The notes: generated by a model not told the origin, from the sequence alone. Shown: positions 10,081 to 20,312, counted from the first letter of the stretch. The stretch: 64,000 bases of DNA from GCF_054482525.1 NZ_CM137006.1; one strand, 5' to 3'. Numbers and translations are program-made.

Positions 10081-11976
<1,896 letters not shown>

Positions 11977-12004: not shown

Positions 12005-12037
12005 AGCCCGGTATACAAGTGTATACCGGGCTTTTTT
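12005..12037. terminator. Bidirectional rho-independent terminator (agcccggtatac..gtataccgggct + T-run)
   Basis: Perfect stem followed by TTTTTT between convergent parE and receptor gene. Confidence 0.75.
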
Positions 12038-12039
12038 GA

Positions 12040-14181
12040 TCAAAATTCCATTTTCACCGTGAATTGCACTTCACGCGGATCGCCAATCTGATTCCCCAGA
12101 TTATTTGTGGCGATGGAAGAGGTGTAATACGTTTTATCAAACAGGTTTTTGACGTTTAATTGCAGTGTGACCGGATACTGCAATTTCATTTTGTATGCAG
12201 CGAAGGCATCGGCAACGAAATAGCCTGGCAGATAATAGTCAGCCCCATTGGTTGCCGAACGACGGCTTACGCCATGTCCACCACCGCCAAACGTCAGTGT
12301 GTTATTGCCAGGCATGTTATGAATGTCATAAGTCAGGAATAGCGAACCGGTATGACGAGGAACATTCGGCAATGGTTTCCCTGCATAATCAGGATCCTCC
12401 AGAACCTTAGCATCGGTATAGCCGTAGCTGGCAATGATATTAATGTTTTCAGTTAATGCTCCCGCAAGGTCGACTTCTACCCCTCTTGAACGAACACGGC
12501 CTGCCGTTTTGGCAATGCTTTCATCACCAATACTTTCGGTATACAACACGTTACGTTTATGGATATCAAACAGCGCAATATCTGCGGTGATACCATCGAA
12601 TAGCTCGAATTTTGCCCCGACTTCGTAAGCATTAGATGATTCCGGTGGAAGATCGCCAATGTAGCTGGCAATTGACGACTGCGGCATAAATGTTTGCGAA
12701 TAATTGGCAAATAAGGATACCGATGGCGTCAGTTTGTAGACTAACCCCAGTTTGGGCGTCCATTGTTCATCGCGGCTGTCAGTATTGACATTAAAAGGAC
12801 GGCCTTTACCCGCATACTGCGTGTAATACTGATAGCGGATCCCGGCGACGGCAATCCAGTTATCGGTCAGATAGAGCGCGTCCTGTGCATACGCTGAGTA
12901 GCTCTCCTGTTTGATCGTCTGATCACTGTCCGACGCCGAAACCGTTGTGCATTTGCTGGTATTGCCATAAACGGGGTTGTAGATATTGAAATCTTTAGCG
13001 TTTTTACAGCGAATCATATCTGTGCGCAGAAGATCATAATATTCATATGACACCCCACCCAGAATCTCATTATAGAACCCAGCAATATCAGCATTCCCTT
13101 GCAGATCCGCACGAGTAGAATGCATACGCTGGGTAGATCCCTGAGTTGCATCAACACGCCGTGTCAGCGTTCCTGTCGTTGCATCATACGCGGTAACGCG
13201 AGCCTGATTGTCGCTGTATTTATCCTGGCTGTAGCTGTAATCAAAGCGCGCTGTCCACTGGCTATTGAGATGATATTCTGCGTTGAGTTGCGCCAGATCG
13301 GACTGACCATCTGTAATATTAAACGGTTCGTCAAAACGTATTTTTCGATCAACGTTTACGGGCTGTTTCGTCGTAAGGTCGAAAATCGTTCCACGATCGA
13401 ACGGAGTTTTATAGTCCCGATGGGAATAGAGCATGGTTACTGTTGCATTATCACCAAACCAGGTGAGTGACGGGGCAATAAATGTACTGCGCTCTTTACC
13501 GAAGTTTCGCCAGTAATCTTCATCCTGCACTTCCCCCGTCAGGCGGTATGCCAGCTGAGTGCCTTCAATGGGACCTGTGATATCAAGTTGCCCAGTGCCT
13601 CCGCCAAAACTGGAGGACGTGGCTGAGACAGAACCATGGAATGTTTTTTCCGGGCGCTTGGTCACGACGTTAATCAATCCACCAGGATCGAGAATGCCAT
13701 ACAGCGTGGAGGCCGGACCTTTTAGCACTTCCACACGTTCTGTGGCGGCGTTGAAACTGCGAGGAAGTACAGTTCGCAGGCCGTTGGTCATGATGGAGCC
13801 ATCCCGGTTTGCGCCAAACCCACGGCGTACAAAAGCATCCTGAGTCCCGCCTAATGTATTGGTCTGTACCACGTTACTGACGTTATAAAGCGCCTCATCC
13901 AGCGTTGTCGCATTCTGGTTTTCCAGAACCTGATCGCTAACCGTATTGACCACCTGCGGGATATCCAGCATCGGCATATCGGTTAATGTCGCCGTAGAGG
14001 TGCTCAGAGGTTGATAACCATCGGTTGCCTCAGTTGCGGTATTTGCATCTGCTGTAACAGTGATTGTTTCGCCATCTTTGGTCGTTACAGAGTCTGTTGC
14101 ATGAATCATCGGTGCCGCAAAAAGCAGTGAAAAGAGCGCCCGACCTTTGAGTCCTGAGAATGAAGGTGTGAACATAGCCAT
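12040..14181 (-). CDS. TonB-dependent outer membrane siderophore receptor (Fit-like, FitA?)
   Basis: 713-aa ORF with signal peptide, plug region and C-terminal terminal-Phe beta-barrel; divergent from ABC importer operon. Confidence 0.85.
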   Translation of the reverse strand: MAMFTPSFSGLKGRALFSLLFAAPMIHATDSVTTKDGETITVTADANTATEATDGYQPLSTSTATLTDMPMLDIPQVVNTVSDQVLENQNATTLDEALYNVSNVVQTNTLGGTQDAFVRRGFGANRDGSIMTNGLRTVLPRSFNAATERVEVLKGPASTLYGILDPGGLINVVTKRPEKTFHGSVSATSSSFGGGTGQLDITGPIEGTQLAYRLTGEVQDEDYWRNFGKERSTFIAPSLTWFGDNATVTMLYSHRDYKTPFDRGTIFDLTTKQPVNVDRKIRFDEPFNITDGQSDLAQLNAEYHLNSQWTARFDYSYSQDKYSDNQARVTAYDATTGTLTRRVDATQGSTQRMHSTRADLQGNADIAGFYNEILGGVSYEYYDLLRTDMIRCKNAKDFNIYNPVYGNTSKCTTVSASDSDQTIKQESYSAYAQDALYLTDNWIAVAGIRYQYYTQYAGKGRPFNVNTDSRDEQWTPKLGLVYKLTPSVSLFANYSQTFMPQSSIASYIGDLPPESSNAYEVGAKFELFDGITADIALFDIHKRNVLYTESIGDESIAKTAGRVRSRGVEVDLAGALTENINIIASYGYTDAKVLEDPDYAGKPLPNVPRHTGSLFLTYDIHNMPGNNTLTFGGGGHGVSRRSATNGADYYLPGYFVADAFAAYKMKLQYPVTLQLNVKNLFDKTYYTSSIATNNLGNQIGDPREVQFTVKMEF

Positions 14182-14278
14182 TTAGTCTGTTATCCCAAAA
14201 ACTCGCGGATTGTCGCGAGTGAAAATTGTTTCTTATTGCTCACTAAGCACTATCCGTTTGTTATTTCACCATCGGATA

Positions 14279-14302
14279 TGTAATTGAGAATCATTCAATC
14301 AT
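14279..14302. promoter_or_regulatory. Candidate Fur box in divergent promoter region
   Basis: taattgagaatcattcaatc resembles GATAATGATAATCATTATC (about 13/19 by eye); AT-rich divergent region. Confidence 0.3.
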
Positions 14303-14554
14303 GCGGTGATGTAGTAGTAAATGAGAAATAACAAAAAATTGCTACATGTGTTTTTATGAGAGGTTAATGCAATTCAATTGATGGTAATTTATTAATATTT
14401 AATGGTTTTATTTTTATCTTTAAAAATATTTCACCTGTTATTTACCTTGTTTTTGTGTGGCTTTTAACTGCTTGACTACTACATTTTGTGGCGTCAAACT
14501 CTCAAAGGAGAATGAGTTTTATTTTTGTTTGTCTTTGATTAAGTTGGCGTACAC

Positions 14555-15364
14555 GTGGCACATAACGCAAAAGGGCAGGGGCTGATCCTCGACAATGTTT
14601 CTGCCGGGTATCACAAGAAAATCATTGTTGATGGTGTTTCTTTCTCCGTTCCCACAGAAAAAATGACCGTTCTGGTTGGGGCAAACGGCTGTGGAAAGTC
14701 GACGTTGCTCAGCACCATTGCACGTATCTTGCAACCCATGGGCGGTTCGATATTGCTGGATGGTAAAGCGATTCACGAGCAACCAACGAAAGCGTTATCC
14801 CGTAGACTTGGGATCTTGCCGCAGTCGCCATTATTGCCGGAGGGCTTAACCGTTTATGAACTGGTGTCGCGTGGGCGTTTTCCCTGGCAGAATTTCATTC
14901 GTCAATGGAGCGACGCCGATGAGCTGGCGGTAGAAGAGGCCCTGAAATTAACGGGTACGCAGGAGTTTGCACATTTACCTGTTGAAAAACTCTCTGGTGG
15001 GCAGCGCCAGCGTTGCTGGATTGCGATGGTGTTGGCGCAAAAGACGCCTTATATCCTGCTGGATGAACCCACAACCTGGCTTGATTTACGTTATCAGGTT
15101 GAAATTCTTGAGTTATTACATGATTTAACACGTCATCACGGGCGTACAGTCGTCGTGGTGTTGCATGATCTGAATTTTGCCGTCAATTATGGCGATACGT
15201 TGATATTTTTACGCCAGGGGAAAGTGGTGCGTGTGTTGAATGAGGGGGAGCATTGCACGCCTGAGCTGGTAAAAGCGGTCTTTGACGTTGATGTTCACGC
15301 ATCAATAAATCCTCTGACGGGAAAGCCGTTCTTCATGCCGTTTCGTGGTGTAGAAAAAGTATGA
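14555..15364 (+). CDS. Iron-siderophore ABC transporter ATP-binding protein (FhuC/FecE-like)
   Basis: 269-aa ORF with Walker A GANGCGKST and LSGGQRQR signature; GTG start forced by in-frame stop at 14540. Confidence 0.85.
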   Translation: MAHNAKGQGLILDNVSAGYHKKIIVDGVSFSVPTEKMTVLVGANGCGKSTLLSTIARILQPMGGSILLDGKAIHEQPTKALSRRLGILPQSPLLPEGLTVYELVSRGRFPWQNFIRQWSDADELAVEEALKLTGTQEFAHLPVEKLSGGQRQRCWIAMVLAQKTPYILLDEPTTWLDLRYQVEILELLHDLTRHHGRTVVVVLHDLNFAVNYGDTLIFLRQGKVVRVLNEGEHCTPELVKAVFDVDVHASINPLTGKPFFMPFRGVEKV

Positions 15365-16344
15365 TGCGCACAGGGCTGGTTACTGTAATTTTCCTCGCCT
15401 TACTGCTGGTGGGATGCGTGGTATATCCAGGGATTGGTGCCCGATTTATTGCACCACAAACGGTATTGCAGGCATTTCTTCATTTTGAACCGCAAAACTT
15501 CGATCACAACGTAATTGTAAGACTCCGTTTGCCGCGTTTAGCGGCAGCATTGCTTACCGGTGCTTCTCTTGGAGTTGCTGGTGCTTTGTTGCAGGCTGTC
15601 ATTCGTAACCCATTGGGGGAGCCACATATTTTAGGCTTAAATGCCGGAGCCGCTCTTGCTGTCGTTGCTGCCAGTGCGCTTGGGCTGGCCTTTCCGGTTG
15701 GACGCCCACTGCTGGCATCTACGGGCGGCGCGTTATTGTTCCTGTTGATATTGCTGCTTTCCTCCGCAGGGCGTTCAGGGTTAACGCCAATGAAAGTTAC
15801 TTTATGCGGCGTGGCGCTATCGGCGTTCGTGTCCTCAATAACGGCTGCAATCCTGATTCTTGACGAACAAACACTGCTGGCGATGCGGACATGGCTAGCA
15901 GGTGATTTAGCGGGGCAGGATTGGGCGACGCTGGGTACGTCCGCCTGGTTTTCTCTGGGGGGATTTGTGTTAGCCCTTTACCTTGCACCCTCCCTTAACA
16001 TGTTGGCACTGGGCGATCGCATGGCGCAGGGGCTGGGCGTCTCTGTACTCCGCACGCGAACATTCACCCTGCTTGCGATCGCGTTGCTCTGTGGCGCAGC
16101 CGTATCGATTGCTGGCCCCATTGGTTTTGTCGGCCTGCTAGTACCGCAGATTGTCCGGCGTCTGGTATCAGCGGATCTGCGCGTTCTGCTCCCTCTTTCA
16201 GCTTGTGTCGGCGCACTTTTGTTATTACTGGCAGATATTATTGCCCGTACGCTTTTCACGCCCCATGAATTAGCGACCGGTGTCATGACGGCGTTAGTTG
16301 GTGCGCCTGTTTTTGTCATTATGGCGACGAGGATGTTCAAATGA
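15361..16344 (+). CDS. FecCD-family ABC permease
   Basis: 327-aa hydrophobic ORF, 4-nt overlap with upstream ATPase gene. Confidence 0.85.
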   Translation: MMRTGLVTVIFLALLLVGCVVYPGIGARFIAPQTVLQAFLHFEPQNFDHNVIVRLRLPRLAAALLTGASLGVAGALLQAVIRNPLGEPHILGLNAGAALAVVAASALGLAFPVGRPLLASTGGALLFLLILLLSSAGRSGLTPMKVTLCGVALSAFVSSITAAILILDEQTLLAMRTWLAGDLAGQDWATLGTSAWFSLGGFVLALYLAPSLNMLALGDRMAQGLGVSVLRTRTFTLLAIALLCGAAVSIAGPIGFVGLLVPQIVRRLVSADLRVLLPLSACVGALLLLLADIIARTLFTPHELATGVMTALVGAPVFVIMATRMFK

Positions 16345-17390
16345 GTCGGATAATGAACGTCGGGCTACGCCCACTACGTGTTGGTAAGTTTTCGACACTG
16401 GTACGCCCTAAAAATCTGCTGTTGCTTGGTGGGCTGTTTCTGTTTGCGGTTGGAATACTGATATTCGGTCTGATGCAGGGTTCTTTCTCTGTTCCGGCAT
16501 CGGAAGTAGGACGAGCGTTGTTTGCTCCAGAAAACGTAAGCACAGACGCACGTTATATTGTGCAGGATATTCGCTTGCCGAGAGTCATCATGGCATTGCT
16601 ATGCGGGGCCATGTTAGGTATGGCAGGGGCCGCAATGCAATCCATTGCACGTAACGGCCTTGCCGATCCTGGGTTAATCGGCGTCAAAGAAGGATGTAGC
16701 GTGGCTGTGCTGTGGCTGATTTTCCAGTTTCCAATGCTGGGAGTGTTCTGGCGTCCAGTGGCTGGTCTTGCTGGTGGCCTGTTGGTGGCTTTAATCGTGA
16801 TTTTTTGTGCGCGCGATATTTCCCGCCCGCGATTTGTTCTGATTGGTATTGGTGTTTCCTGGTTTTTCGCCGCCGGTATCGGTGTATTTATGACCACTGC
16901 AGATGTTCGAGATGTACAAACTGCATTGATGTGGTTATCGGGAAGCCTGCATGCAGCTAACTGGATGTTAGTCGGTATTTCAGCCTGTTGGATGTTGCCA
17001 GCCGCTCTTTTATTGCTGTTCACCGCCAGGACGGCGGATATCGCTCTGCTTGGTCATCAGGTTGCAACCGGGTTAGGGGTGAATAGTTCTCGTCTGGCGT
17101 TGTTACGTGTCGCCGCACCCATAATCCTGACAGCCGTCTGCGTTTCGTGTGTTGGTAACATCGGTTTTGTCGGATTGATAGCACCCCATATATCACGTTT
17201 TATGCTACGTGGCGGGCAGACGACATTACTGCTGGGGAGCGCGGTATCGGGGGCGTTGTTAGTTATTCTGGCGGATAGCATTGGTCGTTTGGCTTTTTTG
17301 CCTTTGCAACTGCCTGCCGGAATCATTATCTCACTGATTGGTGGACCATTTTTTTTGCTACTGCTCTGGCAGCGCAGGAACAGTTTTTAA
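16341..17390 (+). CDS. FecCD-family ABC permease (second)
   Basis: 349-aa hydrophobic ORF, overlaps previous permease stop. Confidence 0.85.
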   Translation: MSRIMNVGLRPLRVGKFSTLVRPKNLLLLGGLFLFAVGILIFGLMQGSFSVPASEVGRALFAPENVSTDARYIVQDIRLPRVIMALLCGAMLGMAGAAMQSIARNGLADPGLIGVKEGCSVAVLWLIFQFPMLGVFWRPVAGLAGGLLVALIVIFCARDISRPRFVLIGIGVSWFFAAGIGVFMTTADVRDVQTALMWLSGSLHAANWMLVGISACWMLPAALLLLFTARTADIALLGHQVATGLGVNSSRLALLRVAAPIILTAVCVSCVGNIGFVGLIAPHISRFMLRGGQTTLLLGSAVSGALLVILADSIGRLAFLPLQLPAGIIISLIGGPFFLLLLWQRRNSF

Positions 17391-17400
17391 CGGGAGTTAT

Positions 17401-18348
17401 ATGCGTTTATTTTTTTCTCTGCTGATACTGTTGTCATTTTTTTCCCGTGCAACAGAACCTGTTCAGGTATTTACTGATGATTTAGGGCGCAAAGTCACTG
17501 TTCCTGCTCATCCAAAGAGAATTGTCTCTTTACACGATCTTGATATCACTATTCCTCTGATTGAGCTCGGTGTACCTCCTGTCGCCAGCCACGGGCGAAC
17601 TCGGCCTGACGGTAGCCATTTCATTCGATCTGGCGCGTTATTGACAGGTGTCGACTTTGATAATTCATCGATCGCCTTTATTGGTACCGCTGATATTGAT
17701 ATTGAAGCGATTGTGGCGGCAAAGCCTGACTTGATCATCACAGAACCGACCCGTAATACGCCCATTGAACAACTTGAAAAAATTGCGCCCACGGTGAGCA
17801 TTGATCATCTCAAAGGGGGCGCGCCAGAAATCTATCGCAAGCTGGCAGAACTTACAGGAACGCAGTCGCAGCTGGCGATACTTGAACGCCGCTATCAGGC
17901 ACAAATCAATGCGCTGAAGGCGACGCTGGACAGCCAAAAAATAACGGTATCGGTGATTCAGGCAAACCAGGGAAAAATTAATGTGATGCATAGCTATCAT
18001 TCGCTGGGGCGGGTATTACGCGATGCTGGTTTTCGTTTTCCGCCGCTGATTGAGAGCATTCCTGAAGGTGGGCGAATGGATGTGAGCGCGGAGCGTTTAC
18101 CTGAACTGGATGCCGATTTTGTTTTTGCAACCTGGCGCGGTGACACCGGTGGTAAACCTCAGGATGAGCTGGCAGCAATGGAAAAAGTCATGCCGGGATG
18201 GTGTCAGTTTCTGACTGCCTGTCGTTCCGGGCGTTATGTGCTGATTTCTCGTGAAGAGGCAATTTCTAACTCCTTTGCATCACTGGGGCTGATGGCTGCG
18301 CAGATACAATCACAAATTGCAGGGCGACCTCTACCGGAGGCTAAATGA
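17401..18348 (+). CDS. Periplasmic siderophore-binding protein (cluster A SBP)
   Basis: ORF track 17338..18348; start trimmed to MRLFFSLLILLSFFSRA signal peptide preceded by GGGAG. Confidence 0.8.
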   Translation: MRLFFSLLILLSFFSRATEPVQVFTDDLGRKVTVPAHPKRIVSLHDLDITIPLIELGVPPVASHGRTRPDGSHFIRSGALLTGVDFDNSSIAFIGTADIDIEAIVAAKPDLIITEPTRNTPIEQLEKIAPTVSIDHLKGGAPEIYRKLAELTGTQSQLAILERRYQAQINALKATLDSQKITVSVIQANQGKINVMHSYHSLGRVLRDAGFRFPPLIESIPEGGRMDVSAERLPELDADFVFATWRGDTGGKPQDELAAMEKVMPGWCQFLTACRSGRYVLISREEAISNSFASLGLMAAQIQSQIAGRPLPEAK

Positions 18349-19232
18349 TCCAGAAAGATAAAGCGCGGGTTGATATTTTTGGTGAGCGTTTTCGCACTCG
18401 CGCGAGTCAGTTAACGCCTGGGTTAAGAGCTGTCGCCAGCTACATTAATGAGCATCGTGAAGTGGTACTCGAGCAAACGGCGATGGAAATTGCGGCCACG
18501 TTGAACACTTCCGATGCCACAGTTATCAGGGCTATACAGGCCCTGGGGTTTGCCGGGCTGCGTGATCTGAAACGCACTCTGGAACAGTGGCTTGGTCCAG
18601 CCCTTAGTTCCAGCGAAAAGATGTCTACGACGGTGAGTAACTTGACGAGCGATGTTAACACCGCAATCGACTTTGTTCTTGAAGGGCATTTGTATACCTG
18701 TAATGTCCTGTCAGAGCCTGAAAACCGCCACGCGCTTGCGCAAGCTGTAGCGTTGTTGGTGCAGGCACGGCAAGTCGCAATTTTTGGCATTGGCGCTTCG
18801 GGTATTCTGGCGGACTATACCGCACGACTATTCAACCGCATAGGTTTGCCTGCCACGGCACTAAACCGTACGGGGATTGGCCTTGCCGAGCAACTGATCG
18901 CGCTTCAACGTGGCGATGTTCTGATCATGATGGCGCAAAAATCTGCGCACCGGGAAGGGCTGACAACGCTTCGTGAGGCGAGGCGGCTGGGGATCCCTGT
19001 TATTTTGCTGACAAACGCGCTGGATTCGCGTTTTAGCAAAGACGCCAGTATCGTGATTCATGTTCCGCGCGGGGATGAAAAAGGGAAAACGCCGCTACAT
19101 GGTACGGTATTGTTGTGTCTGGAAATGATTGTCTGGTCGGTAGCTTCCGCAGTGCCGCAGCGTGCGGTTAAAACCATTAAGCGAATTAACGATTTCCATC
19201 GAGGACTGAAAACGGGAAGAAAGAATGGCTAA
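18345..19232 (+). CDS. RpiR/MurR-family transcriptional regulator (HTH + SIS domain)
   Basis: 295-aa ORF; N-terminal HTH, C-terminal SIS-like phosphosugar-binding region; start overlaps binding-protein stop (ATGA). Confidence 0.75.
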   Translation: MIQKDKARVDIFGERFRTRASQLTPGLRAVASYINEHREVVLEQTAMEIAATLNTSDATVIRAIQALGFAGLRDLKRTLEQWLGPALSSSEKMSTTVSNLTSDVNTAIDFVLEGHLYTCNVLSEPENRHALAQAVALLVQARQVAIFGIGASGILADYTARLFNRIGLPATALNRTGIGLAEQLIALQRGDVLIMMAQKSAHREGLTTLREARRLGIPVILLTNALDSRFSKDASIVIHVPRGDEKGKTPLHGTVLLCLEMIVWSVASAVPQRAVKTIKRINDFHRGLKTGRKNG

Positions 19233-19276: not shown

Positions 19277-19591
19277 TTAAATCCCCGGTTGCAGGATGCG
19301 GATATTCATCTCCAGCACATCGCCTTTTACGGCCTCGCTGTACGCTTTCATGTGCGGGGTCTGCAAGTGCGCTTCAAGATGCGCGATGCTTTCCCACTGC
19401 TCAATCATCACGATAGAATCCGGTGCCATAGACTGGAAACTCACGCCAGCAGCGCAATCCACCATTGGCGCATAGCCGTGGCAACCTTCTTCTTTCAGTA
19501 CGGTTGGAACGATTTTAGCAAACTGATCCAACACTGCCTGACGGTGATGTTGACCAGGACGAGTACGGATTTCTGCGATTACTGTAATCAT
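19277..19591 (-). CDS. ygiN: Quinol monooxygenase YgiN
   Basis: 104-aa ORF recognised. Confidence 0.9.
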   Translation of the reverse strand: MITVIAEIRTRPGQHHRQAVLDQFAKIVPTVLKEEGCHGYAPMVDCAAGVSFQSMAPDSIVMIEQWESIAHLEAHLQTPHMKAYSEAVKGDVLEMNIRILQPGI

Positions 19592-20203: not shown

Positions 20204-20312
20204 TTTTTAACCTCAAGGTGAGACGTTTGCCGACTATAGTACGTCACAGAGCGGTACGGTGAAATTAGCAAAATGTGCAAAGTCTTTTGCGAATTTAGCA
20301 AAAGTCTTACCC

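Follow-up and report, generated by a model that had tools for sequence, protein, structure and literature searches.

The fit iron-uptake locus between parE and ygiN of Escherichia coli: a candidate operator and an apparently non-canonical SIS domain for its regulator FitR

Results

Genes and setting of the fit locus

In 64,000 nucleotides of DNA from NZ_CM137006.1 (assembly GCF_054482525.1; the window below), positions 12040-19232 hold a gene for a TonB-dependent receptor that is divergent from a five-gene operon for an ATPase, two FecCD permeases, a binding protein and an HTH_6+SIS regulator. This region is the published fit locus (fitA, fitBCDE and fitR) of extraintestinal-pathogenic and B2-type Escherichia coli, in another strain. 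Taken as a whole, the explanation that we hold to be very probable is that Fit is a siderophore importer repressed by both Fur and FitR, that FitR would act through an operator made of TGTAGTAGT elements, that its SIS domain would be non-canonical, and that substrate induction would come on top of iron control. The gene names were defined by Ouyang & Isaacson in 2008 (PMC2593036), and the features of the locus are as follows.

12005-12032, no strand assigned: bidirectional terminator-like hairpin between the parE and fitA stops (terminator scan, both strands, 12 pairs); left island edge
12040-14181, minus strand: fitA, TonB-dependent outer-membrane siderophore receptor, 713 aa (open reading frame; TIGR01783)
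14182-14554, no strand assigned: fitA-fitB divergent regulatory region, 373 bp, AT-rich (GC 0.37 in the composition window 14000-14499)
14555-15364, plus strand: fitB, ABC ATPase, 269 aa, GTG start as in RefSeq (open reading frame; best NCBIfam match FecE, below its cut-off; primers)
15361-16344, plus strand: fitC, FecCD-family permease, 327 aa (open reading frame; RefSeq; NCBIfam; primers)
16341-17390, plus strand: fitD, FecCD-family permease, 349 aa from the first ATG, with the RefSeq start 12 nt later at 16353 (open reading frame; NCBIfam; primers)
17401-18348, plus strand: fitE, periplasmic siderophore-type binding protein, 315 aa, with the longest open reading frame starting at 17338 (3BE5/3BE6 match; primers)
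18345-19232, plus strand: fitR, HTH_6+SIS autorepressor of the RpiR/MurR family, 295 aa (Pfam; primers with 0-1 mismatch; function from PMC2593036)
19245-19260, plus strand: terminator-like hairpin 3' of fitR and before ygiN (terminator scan); right island edge

The six genes are inserted between parE (10084-11976) and ygiN (19277-19591, minus strand). A junction alignment with K-12 MG1655 showed that the spacing between these two genes is only 47 bp there, with no island. In the RefSeq annotation of a 99.4%-identical strain the same six products occur between parE and ygiN, under the names TonB-dependent siderophore receptor, ABC ATP-binding protein, FecCD permease (twice), iron-siderophore substrate-binding protein and MurR/RpiR family regulator. 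The 17 primers listed in PMC2593036 (Table 2) all match the fit gene expected for them with 0-1 mismatch, the published fitA primers for quantitative polymerase chain reaction match at 13361 and 13418, and residues 19-315 of FitE match the chain of PDB 3BE5/3BE6 (E 2e-195). Gene order, primers, FitE crystal sequence, FitR domains and the parE-ygiN site are thus all shared with the E. coli fit system (Ouyang & Isaacson 2006, 2008), and we found no difference from it in this window. The stretch is 99-100% identical to many sequenced E. coli and was found in 1870 of 5426 complete E. coli genomes, counted at a coverage of at least 80%. A 'fit operon' region of 7193 bp, the length of 12040-19232, is listed for an avian pathogenic strain in a 2026 genome paper, and in other papers fitA has served to mark B2 and adherent-invasive strains.

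An earlier note on this DNA had placed a siderophore-type island, absent from K-12, between parE and ygiN, with a receptor divergent from the ATPase, permease and binding-protein genes, and had remarked on its likeness to Fit. Our open reading frame calls returned its six genes at exactly the same coordinates, and the annotation, the TIGR01783 score of the receptor and the 47-bp K-12 junction confirm the rest of this description. The likeness goes further than the note had proposed, since the primers, the 3BE5/3BE6 match and RefSeq make this the fit locus itself. The translational coupling that it suggested for the fifth gene is present as a sequence overlap, ATGA at 18345-18348, formed by the fitE stop and the fitR start. 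The same motif joins fitB and fitC (15361-15364), and fitC and fitD overlap by 4 nt in the open reading frame list. When the island edges were examined for direct repeats, mobility genes and a target-site duplication, only the terminator hairpins were found, with no clear duplication.

Transporter class

FitA scored 369 bits against the siderophore-receptor subfamily model TIGR01783 (cut-off 223.5) over residues 73-713. It fell far below the cut-offs of the vitamin B12 model TIGR01779 (42.9 vs 599.7 bits) and the heme model TIGR01785 (96.3 vs 316.85 bits). After its own crystal structures, the best solved matches of FitE were YfiY, FhuD, SirA and FepB, and all of its relatives with E <1e-3 were siderophore-binding proteins. 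These results place the transporter with siderophore systems and not with vitamin B12 or heme importers, the outcome that the note had named as refuting its reading. FitB, FitC and FitD scored best against Fec and Fhu models of NCBIfam. The system has the parts of a FecCD-type (type II) importer, namely two FecCD permeases (FecC/FecD/FhuB/BtuC models), an ATPase (FecE/FepC/FhuC) and, in FitE, a cluster-A binding protein of the Peripla_BP_2 type.

The homology did not extend to a named substrate. FitA reached the equivalog cut-off of none of the NCBIfam receptor models for FhuA, FoxA, FhuE, Fiu, FecA, FauA, BtuB and heme; its best equivalog was PRK14050 (236 vs 884 bits), and it scored 229 vs 803 bits for FhuA and 164 vs 1300 bits for FoxA. 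Its nearest solved structures, FetA, FoxA/CntO and FhuA, were matched about equally (E 1e-48 to ~1e-43). Because FitA and FitE both stayed under every NCBIfam equivalog cut-off and the best receptors scored alike, we rejected a substrate assignment by homology.

Among known systems, Fhu of E. coli K-12 (FhuA, FhuCDB) consists of the same parts, with a TonB receptor, a cluster-A binding protein, a FecCD-type permease, an ATPase and Fur control, and FitA, FitC, FitD and FitE all match Fhu models or structures. However, the Fit scores lie far under the equivalog cut-offs, FhuB is a fused protein whereas Fit has two separate permease genes, and Fhu lacks the divergent receptor gene and the repressor of its own that Fit possesses. 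Fec is the other E. coli iron importer with a specific regulator besides Fur (PMC2593036), and FitB and FitC score best against the FecE and FecC models. Its regulation differs, in that an extracytoplasmic function sigma/anti-sigma pair (FecIR) is triggered at an N-terminal extension of the receptor; no fecI/fecR-type genes are annotated by RefSeq in the fit locus.

FitR and its published function

The last gene had been described in the earlier note as a helix-turn-helix and SIS regulator of the RpiR/MurR type, and the Pfam search found both domains, HTH_6 (PF01418, E 1.1e-9) at residues 15-81 and SIS (PF01380, E 1.3e-13) at residues 138-247. FitR also aligned over its full length to RccR (8JU9/8K3B) and NanR (4IVN), and it was far below every NCBIfam equivalog cut-off. 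The note had regarded such a regulator as an unusual partner for an iron importer. The pairing is real, but it is not new. The helix-turn-helix and sugar-isomerase domains of FitR were described in 2008 (PMC2593036), and the same study showed that fitA and fitB fusions were repressed by FitR overexpression and derepressed by fitR knockout, that purified FitR shifted fitA-fitB intergenic DNA and is an autorepressor, and that fit was repressed by Fur, with FitR acting independently of it. The effects of the fur and fitR mutations were 23-fold and 2.2-fold, and that of the double mutant was 52-fold (PMC2593036). Because pairing, domains, autorepression, DNA binding and independence from Fur have been published, the locus is to be considered as known.

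FitR shares with MurR, NanR, RccR/HexR and AlsR the HTH_6+SIS architecture, autorepression and, probably, the binding of inverted repeats in a divergent intergenic region. In contrast to these regulators, which control sugar catabolism, FitR controls an iron importer.

Two observations concern the start of FitR. The complementation construct pBAD-fitR1 (primer fitR1 forward, 18402) begins at codon 20 of the annotated gene, and the reported size of FitR is 28 kDa, compared to about 32 kDa estimated for 295 residues. The true start codon may need checking.

Relatives of FitR in other genomes

Many Enterobacterales have FitR orthologues of 66-99% identity. When 80 loci were fetched and searched by tblastn with the six E. 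coli Fit proteins, two layouts were seen. Type 1 is the full fitA/fitBCDE-fitR arrangement and occurs in Escherichia, Enterobacter, Kosakonia, Phytobacter, Citrobacter, Klebsiella, Raoultella, Kluyvera and some Erwinia. In type 2, found in Pantoea, Serratia, Rahnella and some Erwinia, the FitR orthologue stands with a divergent TonB-dependent receptor that is 36-39% identical to FitA, and there is no ABC importer; examples are L047 (7445-10870) and about 20 other loci, with regulators that are 66-74% identical. A relative in a high-GC genome (44% identical) ends an operon with a receptor, an ATPase, two FecCD permeases, a binding protein and two PstS-like proteins. The relatives are consistently linked to iron-uptake genes, to TonB-dependent receptors with or without an ABC importer, and judging by these neighbourhoods the partnership of the FitR clade with a TonB-dependent receptor is therefore conserved. 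Since the regulator travels with the receptor even where the ABC importer is missing, its ligand would seem to be tied to the substrate of the receptor, away from sugar metabolism. In the approximately 80 loci, no kinase, phosphotransferase system or sugar-catabolic gene was conserved next to the FitR orthologues.

The neighbourhoods of more distant members of the clade (25-51% identity) were less uniform. The only suggestive ones were those of P0128, with a Fit-like operon, and P0140, with metal-transport genes; P0124, P0129, P0132 and P0145 have mixed or very short contexts.

Some distant Fit-like operons (L039, 6926-9992, and also L043; L085, 6010-7946, and L092, 8010-9946) contain additional genes, placed after the binding-protein gene and before that of the FitR-like regulator. 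One encodes a PepSY-type membrane protein, perhaps a siderophore reductase like FoxB, and two encode PstS-family-like proteins with no obvious signal peptide. In L084 (7355-8798), a FitR relative of 41% identity with the motif MVQKSKHHEG is divergent from a metal-transport operon of the BOF, HupE/UreJ and NicO types, which hints at a broader tie of this regulator branch to metal uptake.

Enterobacter and its relatives also have fit at the parE-ygiN site, with an extra block of 5-6 kb between fitR and ygiN (Enterobacter asburiae L008, 10999-16351; similar in L006, L009, L010, L013, L014, L016, L022 and L030). In L008, the only locus inspected, the genes named by eye are an AraC regulator, a 628-aa protein of unidentified family, a LacY-like transporter and a glycoside-hydrolase-like protein. 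The parE-ygiN site looks like an insertion hot spot. We considered this sugar island as support for a link between FitR and sugars and rejected it, because an AraC regulator is encoded within the island itself, which occurs only in this genus group.

A candidate FitR operator in the fitA-fitB region

The fitA-fitB intergenic region was aligned from 13 type-1 loci of 13 genera. Within sequence that otherwise could not be aligned, four blocks show little or no variation: two Fur-like boxes, TGTAGTAGTAAA and TTGACTACTACA. They are located as follows, together with a weaker copy.

14280-14298, no strand assigned: Fur-box-like GTAATTGAGAATCATTCAA on the fitA side, from the alignment (putative Fur box)
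14310-14321, plus strand: TGTAGTAGTAAA, candidate FitR operator half on the fitA side, from its conservation; the fitA-coding strand reads TTTACTACTACA
14310-14318 and 14475-14483: the two 9-mer copies, TGTAGTAGT and ACTACTACA, respectively
14341-14346, plus strand: GCTACA, partial inverted copy about 20 nt past the fitA-side element (weak, hexamer only)
14472-14483, minus strand: TTGACTACTACA, inverted candidate FitR operator copy on the fitB side, from the alignment; invariant in 49 of 50 type-1 loci
14508-14526, no strand assigned: Fur-box-like GAGAATGAGTTTTATTTTT on the fitB side, with 13 of 19 Fur consensus positions on the minus strand and conserved in 13 genera (putative Fur box)

In the window, TGTAGTAGT occurs twice, both times in this intergenic region. 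It is present on the fitA side in all 50 type-1 loci and on the fitB side in 49 of them, and the two copies are 164-189 bp apart. The type-2 loci carry it in 20 of 21 cases beside the same Fur-like box, though their receptor differs. In all fetched loci together (1.6 Mb) we counted 145 matches, compared to about 12 expected. At each promoter the element lies approximately 10-25 bp from a Fur-like box. On the fitA side this box, GTAATTGAGAATCATTCAA, is identical across the 13 aligned loci, except for a one-base deletion in L014, and it is nearly identical 5' of the different receptor in type-2 loci. The boxes match the 19-mer Fur consensus at 13-14 positions only and are thus Fur-like, not proven. 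The partial copy is kept as ACTACA or GCTACA at the same spacing in most type-1 and nearly all type-2 loci. On the fitB side, TTGACTACTACA overlaps a -35-like TTGACT, which is followed after a 17-nt spacer by a -10-like CAAACT at 14495-14500 (both assigned by eye). The arrangement recurs in the high-GC locus L092, with a regulator of 44% identity, where the receptor promoter has TGTAGTAGT, then TTTACTACTACA about 110 bp later and then a Fur-like ATTGACAATCATTCTCAAT (1765-1773, 1886-1916).

The primers of the published electrophoretic mobility shift probe map to 14203 and 14538, so the probe shifted by FitR covers 14203-14561 and includes both TGTAGTAGT copies. Because the element is conserved across the loci and lies inside this probe, we infer that the inverted TGTAGTAGT pair is a candidate FitR operator. 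Separate Fur and FitR sites would explain the independent repression measured in 2008.

The SIS pocket of FitR

In NanR, MurR and RccR four conserved Ser/Thr residues hold the phosphate of the ligand, and in RccR these are S139, S183, S185 and S188, which bind the phosphate of 2-keto-3-deoxy-6-phosphogluconate (PMC11014249). In MurR, S146, S190 and S192 contact the phosphate, and the single change S190A abolishes ligand binding (PMC9177960). The corresponding residues of FitR were taken from HMMER alignments to RccR (8JU9/8K3B) and NanR (4IVN), the registers of which agree:

RccR S139: FitR S152 (kept)
RccR S183: FitR A197
RccR S185: FitR K199
RccR S188: FitR H202
RccR H164: FitR G177

FitR thus keeps one of the four phosphate-holding serines, and A197, K199 and H202 are invariant in all orthologues, as is the replacement motif M[AG]QKSAHREG to which they belong. 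Where the canonical pocket has S-x-S-G-x-S/T, FitR has A-Q-K-S-A-H-R-E. Across genera whose FitR proteins are 66-99% identical, residues Q198, K199, S200, H202, R203, E204 and H252 do not vary. The distant representatives (25-50% identity) also lack these serines and have LAYGRxYxE instead. Because three of the four serines are replaced, we infer that the SIS domain of FitR probably lacks the canonical mode of phosphosugar binding.

The earlier note had suggested a sugar-containing substrate or a sugar-phosphate effector. FitR would then sense a phosphosugar or a sugar borne by the substrate, and Fit would import a glycosylated siderophore, or iron uptake would be tied to sugar metabolism. The SIS domain of FitR is genuine by Pfam, all structurally characterised regulators of the family (MurR, NanR and RccR) bind phosphorylated sugars (PMC11014249, PMC9177960), and the GIGASG loop with S152 is kept. 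Two PstS-family (phosphate-binding-like) proteins just before the regulator in some distant Fit-like operons, as well as the sugar-utilisation island that adjoins fitR in Enterobacter, point in the same direction. However, three of the four phosphate serines are replaced, the single S190A change ends binding in MurR, and the histidine that the MurR authors reported to be highly conserved in the family (RccR H164 and MurR H171, taken as equivalent) aligns with FitR G177. The neighbourhoods of the orthologues in about 80 loci contain no conserved sugar gene, and the Enterobacter island is absent from other genera and has an AraC regulator to itself. We consider a sugar effector to be unlikely; on the residues alone, a phosphorylated ligand is weakened as a hypothesis, but not refuted.

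It is also possible that FitR works without a small-molecule effector, as a constitutive autorepressor that damps its operon by negative feedback and uses the SIS domain for oligomerisation. The published repression is weak and hardly differs between iron-rich (1.35-fold) and iron-poor (1.48-fold) medium (PMC2593036), and the literature reports no inducer. Furthermore, fitR is the last gene of the operon that FitR represses, so that the circuit would be a simple negative-feedback loop. However, the invariance of the six residues that replace the phosphate loop and of H252 argues for a conserved binding site and not for a decayed pocket, and the regulator is kept beside the receptor in type-2 loci, even without operon feedback. 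We give this alternative somewhat more weight than the sugar effector, but still think it improbable.

Discussion

Substrate of the Fit system

The substrate would most likely be a hydroxamate-type or mixed ferric siderophore from another organism. The later literature on the Fit substrate or a FitE ligand yielded only genome surveys and structure alignments, and later papers that cite the 2006 fit study disagree with one another on the substrate. A different metal chelate could be imported, such as a nicotianamine- or opine-type metallophore of the kind taken up through CntO, or Fit could aid the uptake of cobalt or cadmium. The chain deposited as the pseudopaline receptor CntO, a sequence that also goes by the name FoxA, is one of several receptors that match FitA equally well as the best solved structures, and the 41%-identical FitR relative with QKSKHHEG lies beside metal genes of the NicO, HupE/UreJ and BOF types. 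A 2026 paper cites the 2006 study for the uptake of Fe2+, Co2+ and Cd2+. However, the similarity of FitA to FetA, FoxA, CntO and FhuA is about equal and thus uninformative. The nearest solved relatives of FitE, namely YfiY, FhuD, SirA and FepB, all bind ferric siderophores, and Fur control and induction under iron limitation have been published for E. coli (PMC2593036) and Klebsiella, the gene induced in the latter being fitA. Among the alternatives that we weighed, a metal chelate of another type appears the most improbable, and a ferric siderophore is preferred.

Proposed mechanism of regulation

With a ferric siderophore as the substrate, the chelate would be taken up by the receptor FitA, handed to FitE in the periplasm and imported by the FitCD permease with the ATPase FitB. 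The divergent fitA and fitBCDER promoters are repressed by Fur-Fe2+ and, independently, by FitR, as has been published for both. FitR would bind the inverted TGTAGTAGT pair, with one element per promoter, of which the fitB-side element overlaps the -35-like hexamer, and a tetrameric repressor of the RpiR type could bridge both sites. When iron is scarce, Fur would open the system, and FitR would keep it down until the imported ligand, or a product of it, releases FitR from the DNA. This releasing ligand is probably anionic. The net logic is most likely a substrate induction on top of the iron control.

Comparable logic is found in other iron-uptake systems. PchR, YbtA and AlcR are AraC-family activators of receptor genes with a ferric siderophore as co-inducer. 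They are dedicated regulators encoded with the receptor or importer cluster and act with Fur, as is proposed for FitR. The difference is that they are activators with a known co-inducer, whereas FitR is a repressor of the RpiR family for which no ligand has been demonstrated.

Several points weigh against this mechanism. A strict sigma-70 consensus scan called no promoter in the fitA-fitB region, and the conservation of TGTAGTAGT could partly reflect promoter function through its overlap with the -35-like hexamer. The pocket still has the GIGASG sequence of the first phosphate loop, with S152, and the basic residues R161 and R165 that align with sugar-contact residues of RccR, and K199, H202 and R203 might bind phosphate non-canonically. 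FitR represses fit only modestly in the published work, by about 1.4- to 5-fold (PMC2593036), and neither there nor elsewhere in the literature has an inducer or ligand of FitR been reported. As for the substrate, reviews go no further than to exclude enterobactin, a 2018 paper described it as unknown and as not enterobactin, and there is the citation for Fe2+, Co2+ and Cd2+ mentioned above.

A possible branch of RpiR regulators for iron uptake

If the comparison is extended to the whole clade, FitR and its relatives may form a distinct RpiR/SIS branch, with a rebuilt pocket that senses an imported ferric siderophore, its breakdown product or another anionic non-sugar ligand, and with TGTAGTAGT as the operator beside Fur boxes. 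We put this forward as a tentative idea, less probable than not. The arrangement of TGTAGTAGT and Fur-like boxes at promoters of TonB-dependent receptors occurs in Enterobacterales and in at least one high-GC proteobacterium. If the idea is true, the SIS domain would have a new role in sensing, and the branch would be a new class of substrate-specific iron-uptake regulators.

The locus itself is not new, since fit is a catalogued accessory iron-uptake system and a marker of B2, extraintestinal-pathogenic and adherent-invasive strains. What the comparison adds is a precise candidate operator and four pocket residues of interest (K199, H202, R203 and H252), which make the questions of the Fit substrate and the FitR effector more testable.

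Downstream of the island, the window differs from K-12 in one further respect. The gene ygiZ (b3027), which lies between qseC and mdaB in K-12, is absent here, and the gap between mdaB and qseC is 109 bp (20204-20312), compared to 696 bp in K-12.

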